64,000 nucleotides of DNA from Patescibacteria group bacterium (GCA_019752815.1 JAIELQ010000005.1:140816-204815), one strand, 5' to 3'; numbered from the stretch's first letter, positions 2,377 through 55,098 are shown. Notes: generated by a model from the sequence alone, not told the origin. Program-made: numbers and translations.

Positions 2377-3225
2377 ATGAAAAACGCACACATTGTATTT
2401 GATATTGGTGGCACTAAAACTCGGGTAGCAATCTCAAGTGACGGAGAGAAGCTTGATGAAGTTGCTAGTTTCCATACGCCGTATGATCCAAAAGAAGGTG
2501 TCAAAAAAATTATTGAGACTATTACCGAAATTGCTCACGGTGTTGAAATTACCACTATCGCCGGTGGTATCCGTGGAGTATTAAGTGAAGAGCGTCGCGG
2601 CATTGTGCATGATGATGTATTAACTGATTGGGTCGATTTTGATGTTGTAGAGGCTCTGGGCAAAAAGTACTCGGTACCGATGTATCTGGAAAATGATGCT
2701 GCGCTCGCAGGCTTAGGCGAAACACATTTTGGTGCCGGGGTTGGTGTAGATTTGGTTGTGTACCATACGGTGAGTACCGGGGTAGGTGGTGTGCGAATTT
2801 CTAATGGCCGGATTGATGCTGCCTCATCTGGTTTTGAACCAGGACATCAGGTGCTTGATATTGATCGCACTATTTTGGGCGATGATATTGAACCAACTTT
2901 GGAGAATCTAGTTTCTGGAACGGCGCTTGAAAAACGCATGGGAGTGAAGCCGTATGATATCCCGCAATCAGATGTAATTTGGGATGAGCTTGCCGGGTAC
3001 TTGGCTCAAGGTTTGCGCAATACTATTTTGTATTGGTCACCCGAAGCTATCATTTTGGGTGGCTCGATGATTATTGGAGATCCAAAAATCCCGATTGAAG
3101 CGATTCGTAAAGCCACGGTTGAAGTCCTCGATGATTTTGTTGAATGTCCGTTTATTACGACGGCCAGTTTGGGGGATGAGGCGGGACTGTATGGAGCACT
3201 CGCTCTCATTCGTCAGCACTCCTAG
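2377..3225 (+). CDS. ROK family sugar kinase (glucokinase-like)
   Basis: N-terminal VFDIGGTKTRVA ATPase motif with an ENDAALAGLGE sugar-kinase core; length about 280 aa. Confidence 0.75.
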   Translation: MKNAHIVFDIGGTKTRVAISSDGEKLDEVASFHTPYDPKEGVKKIIETITEIAHGVEITTIAGGIRGVLSEERRGIVHDDVLTDWVDFDVVEALGKKYSVPMYLENDAALAGLGETHFGAGVGVDLVVYHTVSTGVGGVRISNGRIDAASSGFEPGHQVLDIDRTILGDDIEPTLENLVSGTALEKRMGVKPYDIPQSDVIWDELAGYLAQGLRNTILYWSPEAIILGGSMIIGDPKIPIEAIRKATVEVLDDFVECPFITTASLGDEAGLYGALALIRQHS

Positions 3226-3856: not shown

Positions 3857-3941
3857 ACCCTCGCTCGGGGAGTTTTCTATTTTTGTACAGATCTTTGAGT
3901 AATTGAAATTTTTATCATTCGCTTAACTTGTAAACACATAT

Positions 3942-4274
3942 ATGTCAGAAAATCCAAATCAAAGCGTTTCGCCGATACGACCATTAGGAGATAGAGTTAT
4001 TGTTCGACCGCTTACTGATGCCGAAGCCGGAACGCTGTCAGCCTCAGGAATTATCATTCCTGATTCCGCCAAGAAAGAAAAACCCGAACAAGGAATTGTT
4101 ATAGCGGTAGGGAATGGGAAATGGAATGAAGACGGCGATAAACGAATTGCCATGGAAGTAAAAGTTGGAGATAAAGTTATCTTCTCAAAATACGGTTTTG
4201 ACGAAGTTAAAGTTGACGGAAAAGAATATTTTATTGTCGGAGAAGCCAGTATCTTGGGTATTTTTACTAACTAA
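3942..4274 (+). CDS. groES: Co-chaperonin GroES
   Basis: IRPLGDRVIVRP...GIIIPDSAKEKP..GIVIAVGNG; 110 aa, immediately upstream of groEL. Confidence 0.95.
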   Translation: MSENPNQSVSPIRPLGDRVIVRPLTDAEAGTLSASGIIIPDSAKKEKPEQGIVIAVGNGKWNEDGDKRIAMEVKVGDKVIFSKYGFDEVKVDGKEYFIVGEASILGIFTN

Positions 4275-4290
4275 TCTAAATTATTAACAT

Positions 4291-5946
4291 ATGGCTAAAC
4301 AAGTAATTTACGGAGAAGAAGTAAAAAAGAAATTGCAAAAAGGTGTTGATACGGTAGCCAATGCGGTAAAGGTAACACTAGGTCCCCGCGGACGTAACGT
4401 TATCCTCGACAAGGGCTACGGTGCGCCAACGATAACGAACGACGGTGTGTCAATCGCCAAAGAAATTACCCTCAAAGACAAATTTGAAAACATGGGGGCA
4501 GAAATCATCAAAGAAGTTGCCAACAAAACGAATGAACTGGCTGGAGATGGTACGACTACCGCAACGGTACTAACGCAAGCATTGGTGAGTGAGGGCCTCA
4601 AGCAAACTACCATGGGTCTCAACTCAATGGCGGTGCGTAATGGTATGGAACACGCCTCAATTGATGTGGTGGCAGCTTTGCGCGCGATGGCAACACAGAT
4701 TACTTCTGTTGATGAGATTAAACAGGTAGCCACTATTTCAGCTGAAAGTGCAGAACTTGGAGAAAAAATTGCCGAAACGATCGACCGCGTTGGTAAAGAT
4801 GGGGTAGTAACGGTTGAAGAGTCTCAAAGTTTTGGTATTGAAACCGAACTGACCGAAGGTATGCAATTTGACCGCGGGTACGTATCACCATACATGGTAA
4901 CCAACCCAGAGCGAATGGAGGCTGCCTACAAAAATGCCCATATATTAATTACAGACAAGAAAATTTCTTCAGTTCAAGAAATTTTGCCGTTGCTTGAGAA
5001 AATTGCCGCCACGGGTAAAAAAGAATTAGTGATTATCGCCGACGATATTGAAGGCGAGGCGCTGGCAACATTTGTGGTAAACAAACTTAAAGGAGGATTC
5101 TCAGTATTGGCGGTTAAGGCTCCGGGATACGGTGACCGCAAAAAGGAAGTATTGGCTGATATCGCGGTTACAACGGGCGGACAACTCATTACCGATGATG
5201 TGGGTCTAAAGTTAGAAACGGTAGAAATTGCTGATTTAGGAAAAGCTGATCGCGTTGTATCAACCAAAGACACCACCGTAATTGTAGGCGGGGCAGGGAC
5301 CAAAGAATCAATTGATAATCGCGTTAAGGCCCTTAAGGCACAGCTTGAAAATACCACTTCAAAATATGATGGTGCCGAAATTGAAAAACGGATTGCCAAA
5401 TTGACGGGGGGAGTAGCAGTGATCCGTGTTGGTGCAGCCACCGAAACTGAAATGAAGTACCTGAAGCTCAAAATTGAAGATGCGGTTAATGCGACCAAAG
5501 CCGCCGTTGAAGAGGGGATTGTGCCGGGTGGTGGAATCGCCTTAGCATTAGCTGCAGGCATTGTAGGTGAAAAAGCTCCTGGTTTAAAAACAACTGAAGA
5601 GCTGATTGGCTACAGCATTGTTTTAAAAGCATTAACTGCACCACTTAGACAAATTGCTGATAACTCAGGATTAATGGATGGATCGGTTGTATTAGAAAAA
5701 CTTAAAGAGGCTATCAAGAAAGATCCTAAATCAAGGATTGGCTACGATGCTGCCAAAGGTGTGATGGTGGACGATATGATTAAAGCGGGAATCATCGACC
5801 CAGTTAAGGTGGAGCGAGCCGCGGTACAACACGCAGTATCAGCTGCCGCCATTCTCCTTACTTCAGAATGTGCGATTGCAGACGAACCAGAACCAGAGAA
5901 ACCGGCCATGCCAGATATGGGGGGAATGGGCGGAGGAATGTACTAG
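4291..5946 (+). CDS. groEL: Chaperonin GroEL
   Basis: AKQVIYGEE...LGPRGRNVIL..., DGTTTATVL, and the GGM-rich C-terminal tail GGMGGGMY. Confidence 0.97.
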   Translation: MAKQVIYGEEVKKKLQKGVDTVANAVKVTLGPRGRNVILDKGYGAPTITNDGVSIAKEITLKDKFENMGAEIIKEVANKTNELAGDGTTTATVLTQALVSEGLKQTTMGLNSMAVRNGMEHASIDVVAALRAMATQITSVDEIKQVATISAESAELGEKIAETIDRVGKDGVVTVEESQSFGIETELTEGMQFDRGYVSPYMVTNPERMEAAYKNAHILITDKKISSVQEILPLLEKIAATGKKELVIIADDIEGEALATFVVNKLKGGFSVLAVKAPGYGDRKKEVLADIAVTTGGQLITDDVGLKLETVEIADLGKADRVVSTKDTTVIVGGAGTKESIDNRVKALKAQLENTTSKYDGAEIEKRIAKLTGGVAVIRVGAATETEMKYLKLKIEDAVNATKAAVEEGIVPGGGIALALAAGIVGEKAPGLKTTEELIGYSIVLKALTAPLRQIADNSGLMDGSVVLEKLKEAIKKDPKSRIGYDAAKGVMVDDMIKAGIIDPVKVERAAVQHAVSAAAILLTSECAIADEPEPEKPAMPDMGGMGGGMY

Positions 5947-6460: not shown

Positions 6461-7144
6461 TTAGATTTCTGTATTTGTGGTGGTGTTGGCAACATCAATT
6501 TTATCTAAATCAATGCGGTAACCAAAACCACTGCCAGTGACGATCATGTGTGGTGACAGACCGCTCTTCTTAAGCTTTTTCCGTAAACGCTTCACGTGAC
6601 TATCGATGAGTCTATCGTGATACTCACCACGTAGTCCGATGACATCCAACAGCTGTTGACGATTGAGGTATCTGCCTTGAGCTGCTAATAACCCTCTAAA
6701 GATACGTATTTCCGTAACGGTGAGGACTGTGGTAACACCATGTATGTTTACGCAATTATCTGTTATATCGATACCTTTAACACTCTGCTTCTCTTTTATT
6801 TCAATTGAGATTGGCGTAGAGAAAAGATTTGCCAGCTCTGTTGGCGTAACTTCACCAGCCAGATATATTACTCCTTGCTCCCAGTAGGTAATAAACTGAC
6901 TGGCTCTGTATTCCGCAGAATAGACTATCACCTTGCTTCGTGGCACTAACTTTCTCATAAGTGTCGGAGAAAGCTTCGTGCCATCCATTTCCTCTATGCA
7001 CGTAACACATTGATCTGGAAGATACTTGCCGTACACAATATCTTCTACAACATCCTCAAGTGTAGTCATGATGAGTTCATAACCTCTTGTCGCTTGCTGA
7101 AACAAATTAGTGATTTTTGGGGTGTTCGAGATAATAAAGAACAT
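6461..7144 (-). CDS. OmpR-family response-regulator-like protein with an atypical receiver domain. The ORF extends to 7237; the likely start is 7144.
   Basis: C-terminal trans_reg_C (TEIRIFRGLLAAQGRYLNRQQLLD...DSHVKRLRKKL...GFGYRI). The N-terminal receiver-like fold lacks the acidic pair (IISNTPK) and the phosphoacceptor Asp (VTCIEEMDG). A strong RBS GGGAGAG lies before the Met at 7144. Confidence 0.6.
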   Translation of the reverse strand: MFFIISNTPKITNLFQQATRGYELIMTTLEDVVEDIVYGKYLPDQCVTCIEEMDGTKLSPTLMRKLVPRSKVIVYSAEYRASQFITYWEQGVIYLAGEVTPTELANLFSTPISIEIKEKQSVKGIDITDNCVNIHGVTTVLTVTEIRIFRGLLAAQGRYLNRQQLLDVIGLRGEYHDRLIDSHVKRLRKKLKKSGLSPHMIVTGSGFGYRIDLDKIDVANTTTNTEI

Positions 7145-25139: not shown

Positions 25140-25275
25140 TAGAATAGTTCTAAAACTCCTAGCTACTACGCTTACTGCGTCGAGAATATGTTCACCGTAC
25201 AATTAGTACGGCTCACACATTCTCTCCTGGTCGCCTTGTATCTAGAAGTTCATTGGAACTATTCTGTCTCCACTA

Positions 25276-25302
25276 CAAAAAACTCCCTTCGGGGAGTTTT
25301 TT
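25276..25302. terminator. Bidirectional terminator, a member of the recurrent AAAAAACTCC...GGAGTTTTTT palindrome family
   Basis: AAAAAACTCCC-TTCG-GGGAGTTTTTT. Confidence 0.7.
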
Positions 25303-25325
25303 GTATCTGCTATAATTGAATAACC

Positions 25326-40751: not shown

Positions 40752-40779
40752 AAAATCCCTCAGCTAGCTGAGGGATTTT
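40752..40779. terminator. Bidirectional terminator after aspS and the small + ORF
   Basis: AAAATCCCTCAGC-TA-GCTGAGGGATTTT perfect palindrome. Confidence 0.7.
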
Positions 40780-51983: not shown

Positions 51984-52508
51984 TTAATTTAAATACAAAA
52001 AGACCATTGGGAGGAGGAGCCACCAGAAGAACCATTCTTTGGGTGAAAACAGTGATGCTATCGGGGTGCCGGGGGTGACGAATTCCGTGACGGGTAAGAC
52101 GTGAAAACTGTAGGCCATAATGAGGATGGTGCCAGCGAGTGCGAGGAGGATTTTTTTGAAGAAACTCTCGAATTTTTTCTCCCGATAGGCGTCGGGCATG
52201 ACGCGGGCAACTAATATTGTGGCGATGGTAGTGAATATGGCAAACAGCACCATCTTCCCTACAGCCAGACTATGTTCGCTCGCGTTATTCGGGAGGAAGG
52301 TGTCGTAGTATGGGAACTCGAGTGAAATCAAGAGCGCCAGGTACAATCCAAAAATGATATTGATGAGGGACTGCCGCCCACGCACAATGGCCCACACGAT
52401 GAAGAATCCAAATACACAAAAGAGGTAGATTAATTCCTGAAGCAGACTAAGAACGTAAGCCGTGTCCATGTCTTTATATTCTATACCCCATCCGACAATT
52501 TGTACCAC
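51984..52508 (-). CDS. Hypothetical membrane protein (5 TM)
   Basis: Hydrophobic profile only. Confidence 0.45.
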   Translation of the reverse strand: MVQIVGWGIEYKDMDTAYVLSLLQELIYLFCVFGFFIVWAIVRGRQSLINIIFGLYLALLISLEFPYYDTFLPNNASEHSLAVGKMVLFAIFTTIATILVARVMPDAYREKKFESFFKKILLALAGTILIMAYSFHVLPVTEFVTPGTPIASLFSPKEWFFWWLLLPMVFLYLN

Positions 52509-52522
52509 TGAGCTGTGGTGTA

Positions 52523-53213
52523 AATCTTAGGGGTTAAACCCCTAAGATTGTTATACTTAAATTAATGCCACGAAAAATAATCCCACTTATTACTGGTGAT
52601 ATATATCATGTGTACAATCGGGGTGTAGATAAACGTGAAATTTTTTTAGATAAAGAAGATTACCTCAGATTTTATATATCGTTGGATTTCTTTAATGTTA
52701 TTGAGCCTGTGATAAATTTTGATAGTGCAAAAGTAAGAAAAGATAGAAATCTTAAGGAAGATAAATTAGTTGAAATTCTCGCATATTCCCTGTTACCAAA
52801 TCACTTCCATTTAATATTGCAACAAAATGTAGATAGAGGAATAAGTGAATTTATGAAGCGAATTTCTGGTGGGTATACTAGTTATTTTAATTCAAAACTT
52901 GAGAGATCGGGTTCCTTACTTCAAGGTACATTTAAAAAAGTACCAGTTCAGAGTCAAGAACAATTACAGTATTTAATGGCTTATGTAAATGAAAATCATT
53001 TTGTGCATGGTATAGAAATTAAACGTGAAATTTGTCACTCGAGCTCACTGCACTACCAAGGTCTTAATAAAAGCAAAATAATTAATCAATCAAATGAGAA
53101 GTATAACTTTGAAAGTAATGTACTTCTAGCAAAAGACATCTACCAAAAAAGACGAAGTTTAAAGTACTCAGATTTAATGGAAAACTAATCTTAGGGGTTT
53201 AACCCCTAAGATT
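52523..53213 (+). mobile_element. IS200-like/RAYT transposase unit: a HuH tyrosine transposase gene flanked on both sides by near-identical palindromic hairpins
   Basis: Left hairpin AATCTTAGGGG-TTAAA-CCCCTAAGATT (52523-52549). Right hairpin AATCTTAGGGG-TTTAA-CCCCTAAGATT (53187-53213) overlapping the transposase stop. No other copies seen in the window. Confidence 0.7.
52565..53188 (+). CDS. IS200-like / REP-associated tyrosine transposase (RAYT, TnpA_REP)
   Basis: GDIYHVYNRGVDKREIFLDKEDYLRFY..., then HuH motif LPNHFHLILQ, and downstream Tyr-containing YLMAYVNENH. Confidence 0.7.
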   Translation: MPRKIIPLITGDIYHVYNRGVDKREIFLDKEDYLRFYISLDFFNVIEPVINFDSAKVRKDRNLKEDKLVEILAYSLLPNHFHLILQQNVDRGISEFMKRISGGYTSYFNSKLERSGSLLQGTFKKVPVQSQEQLQYLMAYVNENHFVHGIEIKREICHSSSLHYQGLNKSKIINQSNEKYNFESNVLLAKDIYQKRRSLKYSDLMEN

Positions 53214-53222
53214 AGGGCGTTG

Positions 53223-53642
53223 TTAGGTGAGGTTATCTAGGGCGTGTCTGGTGGCGTCTTGGAGGTGTTTGAAACGGTCACCCATTAGTTTGGTGCCACC
53301 AAACCACCTTGTGACACATACGATGCAGTTGGTGACGTCATAGGTCTGCATCACACGTAGTATGACCATGCCGGCGCCGGTTTCGCCGTCGTCTGATTTT
53401 GTTTCGTAGACAGCGCCCTCGTGTGTGATGCGGGCGGCCCAGCTATTGTGGTCGGCTTTTTGATATTGTTTTTTGGATTTTAATTGTTTAAGAAACGCTT
53501 TGATATTGTCACGACCTTCTACCCTGCCAAAGCTTGCACTATATTTACTACCGCGGTCCTCGATGATGTATTCAAACAATTCAAAGGAGCTGGACGGTTG
53601 TTTGCTATCGCCAAAATCAAATGACGTGGATTGTTTGGGCAT
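53223..53642 (-). CDS. YigZ/IMPACT family protein (UPF0029). The ORF extends to 53678; the Met at 53642 is likely.
   Basis: IIEDRGSKYSASFGRV..., HNSWAARI...DDGETGAG..., CIVCVTRWFGGTKLM. Confidence 0.75.
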   Translation of the reverse strand: MPKQSTSFDFGDSKQPSSSFELFEYIIEDRGSKYSASFGRVEGRDNIKAFLKQLKSKKQYQKADHNSWAARITHEGAVYETKSDDGETGAGMVILRVMQTYDVTNCIVCVTRWFGGTKLMGDRFKHLQDATRHALDNLT

Positions 53643-53699
53643 GTTGACAGTATGATACCAAAATTGTAGTGTAAGCAATAGTTTGGGAAAGGAAAGCTA

Positions 53700-53912
53700 A
53701 TGTCACAGTCAGAAACATCTAAGGCTGAGTACAAGAAGTACAATCCTCCGATTATTTTTATCTACCTGTGGCCGACCATTATGACGATGGTGGTGTTTTA
53801 TCTGCTACATTATGATGTAATTGTTGTGCTGTGTATCGGAATTGCTGTATATGGTTTTCTCAATTACCTTCAGTACTTGGCAAATTATATTGTGACTGTG
53901 CTGAAGAAATGA
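53700..53912 (+). CDS. Small two-TM membrane protein (70 aa)
   Basis: RBS GGAAAGGAAAG before the ATG; an upstream TTGACA-N17-TAGTGT; two hydrophobic helices. Confidence 0.4.
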   Translation: MSQSETSKAEYKKYNPPIIFIYLWPTIMTMVVFYLLHYDVIVVLCIGIAVYGFLNYLQYLANYIVTVLKK

Positions 53913-53920
53913 AACAAAAA

Positions 53921-53950
53921 AGGGCGCCAGCGATTGGTGCCCTTTCTGCT
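53921..53950. terminator. Bidirectional terminator between the small membrane protein gene and dnaJ
   Basis: AGGGCGCCA-GCGAT-TGGTGCCCT flanked by an A-run and a T-run. Confidence 0.6.
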
Positions 53951-53957
53951 GTCCCTG

Positions 53958-55022
53958 TTAGATTCCTTCAGCGCGGAGTTCCTCGACTAGTTTTTTGGCT
54001 TTTTTGCTGAGGCTCTTTGGATTGGCGATTTCAATTTTGATTAAGAAGTCACCGCGGCGGGTGCCGTCAACGGGGACGCCTTTGCCTTTAATCCGAAGGA
54101 GTTCACCGTGGGCGATGCCGGCTGGAATGTTGACTGATACTTCCCCATCGAGGGTGACGATTTTGTAGGTTGCACCAAGTAAGGCATCGGTTAACTTAAT
54201 TGGTTGCTTGGTGTAGAGGTTGGCACCGTCGCGTTTGATGGTATTGTGGGGTTCTACCTGGACCTTGATGTAGAGGTCGCCGGTTTGGCCGCCTTTGATG
54301 GCTTCACCACGGCCGGTCATGCGGATGACTTCGCCGTTTTGAATACCGGCGGGGACTTTGATTTGAATTTCCTCTTGGGTACGGGCGACACCGGCTCCGG
54401 CACAATTGGTGCAGCGTTCTTTGGGGATCTTGCCGGTACCGTTACAGGTACTACATTCACGTACCGTTGAGAAACTGCCCATGACGGTCTGACGAGCTTC
54501 ATGGATTTTACCGGCACCGTTACAGGTACTGCAGGTGGTGACATCAGTTCCCTTTTTGGCACCACTACCTTCACAGACAGTACAAGTAGCGTTTTTGGTA
54601 ATGAGGACTTTGCGCGTTACACCGAAGATCGATTCTTCGAAGTTGAGGTTAATATCAATCGAGATGTCGCGACCGCGAGATTGTTTGCGGCCACCACCGA
54701 AACCGAAGTTTTCAAAGATATCACTAATATCAAATTCGAAGTTCGCTCCCCCTCCGCCCTGCTGGAAGTCTGCCCAATTGAATCCACCAAAACCGCCACC
54801 TGGTTGACCGCCACCGTTAAATGAGTGGCCGTAGGTGTCGTATTCAGCTTTTTTCTTTTCGTCACCTAACGTGGCGTAGGCTTCGGTAATTTCTTTGTAC
54901 TTGGCCTCATCACCGGTTTTTTTGTCAGGATGGTATTGGGCAGCAAGTTTACGAAATGCCTTTTTTACTTCGTCACGTGAGGCGCCTTTTTGGAGTCCGA
55001 GAACTTGGTAGTAGTCTTTCAT
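53958..55022 (-). CDS. dnaJ: Chaperone DnaJ
   Basis: J-domain [22 protein letters not shown] region, four CxxCxGxG zinc-finger repeats. Confidence 0.95.
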
Positions 55023-55098
55023 AAGATGATGTTTGCAATTATGTCACAAGGATACAACAATCGCAAAAGCTTTGCTTTTGCGATTGTTGTAATTTGTA

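Follow-up and report, generated by a model that had tools for sequence, protein, structure and literature searches.

A probable long-resident RAYT-type nuclease gene between two cognate palindromes at the end of the dnaK operon in Patescibacteria

How does a gene for a Y1-type transposase come to stand, as a single copy between two matching palindromes, at the end of a chaperone operon: as a newly arrived mobile element, as a regulator acting on operators, or as an old resident with palindromes of its own? The question is raised by a stretch of 64,000 nucleotides from Patescibacteria group bacterium (GCA_019752815.1 JAIELQ010000005.1:140816-204815), referred to below in its entirety as the window. 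A preliminary description, made from the sequence, had singled out a 207-aa HuH protein between two 27-nt perfect palindromes and had read the arrangement as that of a repetitive extragenic palindromic (REP)-associated tyrosine transposase (RAYT). Our analysis supports this reading, corrected in that the unit is a long-time resident, its palindromes are not canonical and it lies inside an array of minus-strand genes. We consider it probable that the whole hairpin-gene-hairpin unit of 691 bp is a 'REPtron/TIRtron', that is, a gene, present once and resident for a long time, that encodes a RAYT-type Y1 HUH nuclease of single-stranded DNA and stands between two cognate palindromes. Its parts are as follows.

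52523-52549: 5' flanking palindrome, AATCTTAGGGGTTAAACCCCTAAGATT, composed of AATCTTAGGGGTT-A-AACCCCTAAGATT, with 13-bp arms and one central base
52565-53188, plus strand: gene for the RAYT-like class-2 TnpA-Y1 HUH nuclease, 207 aa, with the motif N79-H80-F81-H82-L-I
53187-53213: 27-nt core of the 3' flanking palindrome, AATCTTAGGGGTTTAACCCCTAAGATT, perfect around one central base
53185-53215: full 31-nt extent of the 3' palindrome, CTAATCTTAGGGGTT-T-AACCCCTAAGATTAG

Both 27-nt palindromes are perfect, and they agree at 27 of 27 positions as mutual reverse complements and at 26 of 27 as direct repeats, the one mismatch being the central base, A in the first 27-mer and T in the second. The 3' palindrome overlaps the TAA stop codon of the nuclease gene (53186-53188), as the preliminary description had it, and is located 7 nt past the stop of a convergent yigZ-like gene, its 21-nt core being 12 nt past that stop. 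Folded as single-stranded DNA, each palindrome forms a 12-14-bp hairpin of -11 to -14 kcal/mol (z ~ -6). A search of the window for the 21-nt core, allowing three mismatches at most, found these two copies (0.00 by chance in 100 shuffles) and no further one, and relaxed-core searches of the same 64 kb returned the same two with no third, in agreement with the earlier count. The nuclease is likewise present once in the window, and, with no dispersed palindromes in 64 kb, the system looks static here.

The assignment of the protein to the class-2 TnpA-Y1 (RAYT-like) HUH nucleases, and to the RAYT rather than the IS200 branch, is supported by profile, structural and residue-level comparisons. The Pfam Y1_Tnp profile (PF01797), which had been proposed as a check, matches with 31.1 bits, above the gathering cut-off of 23, and also matches 44 of 45 family members. 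Searches of the PDB with the single sequence or a profile gave only a marginal match to ISDra2 over the HUH region (E 0.2-0.7), so that the link to RAYT proteins required a structure model and hhalign. In the AlphaFold model (predicted local distance difference test score, pLDDT, 91.7), the best Foldseek match in the PDB is 4ER8, the E. coli RAYT with its REP hairpin (E 6.2e-7); the IS608 and ISDra2 TnpA proteins come next (E ~1e-5), and all matches at E <= 0.001 are Y1 transposases without exception. An hhalign comparison with E. coli RayT (NC_000913.3), with ~24% identity over 84 aligned columns, sets H80-F81-H82 opposite H59-M60-H61, equating H80/H82 with H59/H61 and Y140/N144/H148 with Y115/N119/H123, the residues that serve as metal ligands and catalytic tyrosine in E. 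coli (PMC3479197).

These residues are also the conserved ones. In an alignment of 45 homologues with 52-87% identity to the window protein, H80-F81-H82, on strand 80-87 of the model, is invariant, and so is Y140, in helix 131-142; the catalytic tyrosine, whose absence had been named as an argument against the RAYT reading, is thus in place. The 36 invariant positions include Y14-H15, N18-R19-G20, N79-H80-x-H82, Y136 and Y140, and further N142-E143-N144, H148 and S160-S161. Pfam detects no second domain in the nuclease, which lacks a C-terminal helix-turn-helix (HTH) or DnaA_C-like domain, the C-terminus of the model being one long helix (182-205). Compared with an 87%-identical relative, nonsynonymous divergence (dN) is 0.066 and synonymous divergence (dS) ~1.3 (dN/dS ~0.05), indicative of strong purifying selection; synonymous sites are near saturation in this comparison, yet both 27-mers are identical. 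The family is large and established, with 662 clusters at E <= 1e-30 and 9,070 at E <= 1e-10 among 1.84 billion cluster representatives, and the database labels of its members include "transposase" and "RayT". The PADLOC defence models contain no match for the unit. The gene should be annotated as a RAYT-like (class 2 TnpA-Y1) nuclease and not as an active insertion sequence.

The same address is occupied in related genomes. In 16 distinct orthologous loci at 47-87% protein identity (45-87% in pairwise comparisons among the orthologues), the gene stands beside dnaJ or yigZ at the end of a grpE-dnaK-dnaJ run. Orthologues were found by exact protein match (P0046, P0034, P0079, P0083, P0115, P0110, P0105, P0003 and P0002), and further loci were added through palindrome scans (L004, L018, L022, L024 and L040); together they span a broad clade of Patescibacteria of the Kaiserbacteria/Paceibacteria type. 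Beyond dnaJ/yigZ, dnaK follows where the sequence reaches, and the gene for a small, unannotated membrane protein lies downstream in 12 of the 16 loci, which are all those whose DNA extends that far; L043 is too short for either flank, and L044 covers the dnaJ side alone. The yigZ gene is missing beside the unit in L029, L038 and L044, and the remoter homologues L006 and L008 are found in other genomic contexts. The occupation of one locus across so many relatives marks the unit as an old resident, not a fresh insertion, and a unit ancestral to its locus suits a vertically inherited RAYT and excludes recent transposition. The notion that an autonomous IS200-type insertion sequence arrived recently in this intergenic spacer, to which an HUH/Y1 protein with terminal hairpins on an AT-rich island of ~690 bp might otherwise point, is hence virtually untenable; besides the occupied loci, it is already contradicted by the single copy in the window, by the class-2 Y-x3-N signature in place of the IS200 Y-x3-Q (PMC6006769), by hairpins that are perfect instead of imperfect and by the lack of tnpB.

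A pair of palindromes flanks every orthologue examined, the upstream one 5-27 nt from the ATG (74 nt in L035) and the other at the stop codon or at most 10 nt from it. The 27-mer of the window also flanks the orthologue in L004, L024, L040, L043 and L044, and the other lineages have variants of their own.

Window: AATCTTAGGGGTTwAACCCCTAAGATT
L032: AAACTTAGGGGTGaCACCCCTAAGTTT
L029: AAGTAAGGGGTCwGACCCCTTACTT
L035: AAAGTAAGGTGTTaAACACCTTACTTT
L037: AAATTGAGGGGTcgaACCCCTCAATTT
L039: AATATACAGGGGTTwAACCCCTGTATATT
L038: two palindromes of 43-47 nt

The core AGGGGT-N3-ACCCCT (A-GG-GT...AC-CC-T) is invariant in the 48 aligned copies, and the rest differs by lineage. Among the 16 symmetric column pairs, 11 have changed on both sides (109 cells, 48 copies), the remaining five being invariable; 89.6% of the cells pair, none of 500 shuffles came up to these values, and sliding the partner columns against each other makes the signal collapse. 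The palindromes have therefore diverged by compensatory, symmetry-preserving substitutions around a fixed core. Even the innermost pair, beside the single central base, is still symmetric, with 10 compensatory changes, and G-T intermediates are almost absent, suggesting a constraint that acts at the level of DNA and not on an RNA hairpin.

Species-representative genomes were scanned for CTTAGGGGTTNAACCCCTAAG, with matches on 28 stretches from nine other assemblies, of which seven belong to the candidate phyla radiation (CPR): four Kaiserbacteria metagenome-assembled genomes (MAGs), Parcubacteria M6-OD1-1, a Paceibacterota MAG and a MAG labelled Saccharibacteria. Outside the CPR, matches came from a MAG listed as 'uncultured bacterium', without classification, and from two cases that are probably unrelated or contaminants. 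Six of the 28 stretches hold a nuclease gene between palindromes, and the others are solitary copies, with two to four exact cores per genome. The solitary copies are mostly intergenic, a few tens of bases from the 3' end of a gene, and occupy non-orthologous positions in different genomes, apart from one site shared by L025 and L027. In each genome examined with both kinds, they carry that genome's own flanking variant; this genome-specific variation concerns the outer stem (AAT...ATT or AAA...TTT) and the centre (A/T in Kaiserbacteria, G/C in M6-OD1-1). In M6-OD1-1, palindromes also lie in frame within uvrA (…NNNLGVEPLSG…), the dihydrouridine synthase gene dus (…NQLRGSTPKLRK…) and a 239-aa open reading frame (ORF) (L012 3683-3703, L020 6344-6364 and L016 7178-7198), and the palindrome is inserted twice in the nuclease ORF of the same organism (L006) and twice in that of L008 (peptide QLRGSTPKL / LGVEPL), similar peptides being found in the remote family members P0125, P0133 and P0137. 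These observations indicate that a palindromic unit of ~23-27 nt has occasionally been inserted in related genomes. In Kaiserbacteria GFS_3221 (L024 2971-2991), a copy with A6/T6 flanks directly follows the dnaJ stop codon, at the place where the window has an ordinary GC hairpin with a T-run at the dnaJ 3' end (~53925-53960, minus strand), and the dnaJ terminator of GFS_3221 looks like one that was rebuilt around the palindrome. According to the preliminary description, a palindrome found nowhere else, together with a unit ancestral to the locus, would speak against the RAYT reading. The unit is indeed ancestral, which is harmless because RAYT biology leads one to expect an ancestral, long-resident unit (PMC5581495), and the palindrome does occur elsewhere.

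The genes that flank the solitary copies in related genomes have no counterpart within the 64-kb window. A metagenome scan for the 27-mer retrieved a single contig, which is another orthologous locus, and no solitary copies. The Kaiserbacteria MAG JAYVIL contains, besides the CTTAGGGGTTnAACCCCTAAG type, a second variant, ATTAGGGGTCnGACCCCTAAT (L010 ~3111-3137, L023 ~6738-6766), which may belong to a second nuclease or to an older generation of copies. At contig ends of a gut 'Clostridiales' MAG and an Aeromicrobium MAG, the 21-mer is preceded by GGGGTT (L003 145-165, L005 7781-7801, L026 291-311); no nuclease homologue was detected on these stretches and their flanks are unrelated, and the copies could represent contamination or an unrelated repeat.

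The nuclease gene is the only substantial plus-strand gene within an array of minus-strand genes that extends on both sides of it, from ~38 kb to 64 kb; the unit is thus embedded in the array and not, as had been proposed, at its upstream boundary. Its immediate surroundings in the window are these.

51984-52508, minus strand: gene for a 174-aa membrane protein, divergent from the nuclease gene
52549-52557, plus strand: extended -10-like element TGnTATACT, abutting the 5' palindrome, read from the sequence
53223-53678, minus strand: IMPACT/YigZ N-domain gene (PF01205), convergent with the nuclease gene and last of the grpE-dnaK-dnaJ-yigZ run

The TGnTATACT element was not called by a simple two-hexamer promoter scan of the window. 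It ends 7 nt ahead of the nuclease ATG, a distance that suggests a leaderless mRNA, and TGnTATA(C/A)T recurs 5-9 nt ahead of the ATG in L029, L036, L043 and L044, with a weaker TGnTACACT in L037. Read in this way, the sequence suggests a leaderless nuclease transcript whose promoter is overlapped by the 5' palindrome and which might hence be self-regulated. The 279-bp gap between yigZ and dnaJ contains a plus-strand ORF for 70 strongly hydrophobic residues (53700-53912), and at the equivalent position in L037 a plus-strand gene of 90 aa has been called; the ORF may be genuine and code for a small membrane protein.

If the enzyme acts like E. coli TnpA-REP (PMC3479197), it would bind the palindrome hairpin on single-stranded DNA, for instance at a replication fork, where Y140 would cut the strand and the HUH histidines would hold the metal before re-ligation. 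The perfect symmetry means that the same hairpin would be offered by both DNA strands. Cutting and re-ligation might occasionally copy the palindrome of ~23-27 nt to new sites. The 5' palindrome would occupy the -35 position with respect to the TGnTATACT -10 element, so that binding there would probably limit the gene's own transcription, and the 3' palindrome, which overlaps the stop codon and faces the convergent yigZ gene, probably also serves as a terminator in both directions.

Several observations weigh against the view of the unit as a long-resident RAYT system. The score with the NCBIfam RAYT equivalog NF047646 is only 35.3 bits, where 80 would be required; the class-2 signature Y---NP appears as Y---NH (Y140-V-N-E-N144-H145), the proline being replaced by histidine in at least 90% of the 45 sequences, whereas remoter profile relatives have YIHLNP; the hhalign comparison shows no conservation at the equivalents of E. 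coli W94, E100 and H101; and the function of the nuclease in this clade is predicted from sequence and model. The guide tetranucleotide GT[AG]G is absent from the palindromes, the foot of the window palindrome reading AATCTTAG in a perfect hairpin. Being perfectly symmetric, without the GT[AG]G foot and few, they are not canonical REPs. Their copy number is tiny, with the handful of solitary copies in each related genome and none in the window, so that dissemination must be rare or ancient. Two further points, the symmetry of the palindromes and the composition and descent of the gene, each bring in an alternative.

The palindromes stay symmetric up to their very centre, even at bases for which pairing in a hairpin is impossible, and this would equally suit a symmetric dimer on double-stranded DNA. 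One may therefore picture a domesticated protein that moves no DNA and binds double-stranded palindromic operators as such a dimer, the palindromes being regulatory or terminator sites for its own and neighbouring transcription and the solitary copies a small regulon. The dyad symmetry down to the central base, with its compensatory changes at the innermost pair and near-absence of G-T, would fit this picture, as would the low copy number, the fixed positions of the 5' copy against the -10 element and of the 3' copy on the stop codon, and the solitary copies, which lie mostly just 3' of genes and in L024 replace an ordinary dnaJ terminator. We nevertheless regard it as very improbable: strong purifying selection acts on the protein, with every catalytic residue (HUH, Y, N, H) invariant, the copies in frame within uvrA, dus and the nuclease ORF cannot serve as operators and imply insertion events, and the solitary copies differ in position among genomes.

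The second point concerns base composition. The GC content of the nuclease gene is 0.30 in the window, against 0.44 for the window as a whole, and 0.30-0.36 over the 12 loci tested, where its GC content at third codon positions (GC3) is 0.20-0.33 compared with 0.28-0.68 for its neighbours, far lower in 12 of 12. Nuclease divergence follows that of DnaJ only in part (Mantel r 0.55, p 0.002), with clear outliers: the DnaJ proteins of L036 and L039 are 84% identical, their nucleases 52%, with different palindromes, and for L018 and L038 the values are 78% and 48%. Low GC3 and partial tracking of DnaJ are awkward for simple vertical descent, and the foreign composition possibly results from fast evolution with an AT bias or from cassette exchange at a fixed site. 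The latter view, on which the unit is a site-specific mobile cassette and not a vertically inherited gene, exchanged or inserted anew time after time through horizontal transfer at one preferred site past the dnaK operon, would explain a composition that stays the same whatever the GC3 of the host, the discordant pairs, the presence or absence of yigZ beside the unit depending on the locus, and the arrangement in L035. There the whole unit (3900-4656) runs in the opposite sense to dnaK-dnaJ-yigZ and the gene for the membrane protein, as would be expected from a flip between its two palindromes. We find repeated horizontal replacement decidedly unlikely, given that the identity matrices are still positively correlated, that an empty site was not seen in the clade and that L006 and L008, in their other contexts, argue against a universal target site. 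Moreover, viral contigs yielded no palindrome and a single remote relative of the nuclease (27% identity), and plasmid DNA yielded no match to the unit.

In a wider picture, which we think unlikely, the unit would be neither a simple vertically inherited RAYT nor an ordinary insertion sequence but a compositionally foreign hairpin-gene-hairpin cassette that keeps to one place behind the dnaK operon in much of Patescibacteria and is renewed by exchange or flipped in place. Its nuclease would have seeded the perfectly symmetric palindrome, the same on both strands, into terminators and, in frame, into essential genes. If true, this would amount to a distinct, CPR-wide partnership of Y1 nuclease and palindrome with a role at the level of the host, for example in termination or in replication-fork handling in very small genomes.

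The probable RAYT unit can be placed among known systems through the published classification of TnpA-Y1 proteins, which separates IS200 proteins (class 1, Y---Q) from RAYT-like ones (class 2, Y---NP) and finds GT[AG]G REPs beside the genes of subclasses 2.2, 2.4, 2.5, 2.7 and 2.8, atypical structures beside those of subclass 2.6 and of class 3, and none beside those of subclass 2.1 (PMC6006769). E. coli RayT (YafM, TnpA-REP) shares with the window protein the fold, the HUH and Y-x3-N-x3-H layout, the single gene flanked by cognate palindromes and, probably, the vertical, single-copy behaviour. It differs in its REPs, which are imperfect hairpins with a 5' GTAG foot in hundreds of copies, whereas those described here are perfect, symmetric, without GTAG and few, and the window protein has a different C-terminal tail of ~60 aa, with an SS motif and the long helix. 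The IS200/IS605 TnpA proteins (IS608, ISDra2) have the same HUH/Y1 fold and recognise hairpin ends on single-stranded DNA, but they are multi-copy, with variable insertion sites, Y-x3-Q, imperfect subterminal hairpins and often tnpB.

Probably closest to the unit, by published motif descriptions, are the "TIRtron" and "double-foot REP" variants. "TIRYT" genes are flanked by inverted repeats with GGGGWSAS (Di Nocera et al. 2013, PMC3733652), and their counterpart in the later classification is subclass 2.1 (Quentin et al. 2018, PMC6006769), or Bertels Group 1. As in the TIRtron, a RAYT-like gene here lies between inverted repeats that are not GTAG REPs, and the repeat families are small or absent. 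The GGGGWSAS motif fits orthologues (GGGGTGAC in L032; GGGGTCAG in L029, L036 and L038), whereas the repeat of the window, GGGGTTAA / GGGGTTTA, misfits its WSAS part. The protein motifs NH[YF]H, FQ and the 'SS' of the tail are shared with subclass 2.1; differences are the missing C-terminal HTH/DnaA_C-like domain, YVNENH instead of Y[IV]HLNP, a length of 207 aa against a median of 238, and repeats that are each a complete palindrome. Subclass 2.4 (Bertels Group 4), with its 'double-foot' REPs, resembles the unit in its symmetric palindromes, NH[IFV]H and similar length (194 aa), and resembles L006 and L008 in having palindromes in frame inside the nuclease gene, but it has GT[AG]G / C[TC]AC feet, a WQ motif and YIxNNP, and is found mainly in Cyanobacteria and Bacteroidetes.

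Palindromes as such are common in the window, which holds 18 perfect ones (arm >= 10, loop <= 6) against 0.47 expected in shuffles. The 16 other than the flanking pair mostly consist of an A-run, a GC stem and a T-run, with 2-6-nt loops and mostly unique sequences. The flanking pair are not ordinary terminators of this kind, having no T-runs, symmetry to the centre, and a sequence that they share with each other and with other genomes; the 3' palindrome was scored as terminator-like on the minus strand in a terminator scan of the window, and a secondary terminator role may apply to the two. The TTAG...CTAA ends and the dnaK neighbourhood also brought to mind the controlling inverted repeat of chaperone expression (CIRCE), the HrcA operator of dnaK operons, TTAGCACTC-N9-GAGTGCTAA. 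It was rejected on account of a different spacing and core, the location downstream of the operon, and outer bases that are not constant among lineages. An Rfam search matched the palindrome unit to no family. Among the other palindromes, three of the terminator-like ones (25274-25305, 58201-58230 and 58877-58904) have a common frame, ACAAAAAACTCC-n4-GGAGTTTTTTGT; the dnaK-dnaJ spacer contains a 39-nt perfect palindrome with 18-bp arms (TACAACAATCGCAAAAGCtttGCTTTTGCGATTGTTGTA) and no T-run (55053-55091); and a loop-free 28-nt palindrome, AAAATCCCTCAGCTAGCTGAGGGATTTT, is located at 40752-40779.

RAYT/REP is the best-known case of a transposase that stays for a very long time in one lineage together with its small palindromes. 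To our knowledge, it has been studied almost solely in Proteobacteria, Cyanobacteria and a few other phyla, and a full-text literature search of incomplete coverage, hence weak evidence, found no paper on RAYT/REP systems in CPR bacteria. The locus shows such a partnership of RAYT and palindrome in the reduced genomes of the CPR, with traits that make it useful: the address is fixed across distant relatives, the covariation of the palindromes can be read from alignments, and the low copy number allows gains and losses to be traced. The clade thereby offers a clean natural data set for the co-evolution of a nuclease with its palindromes and for the takeover of such palindromes as terminators.

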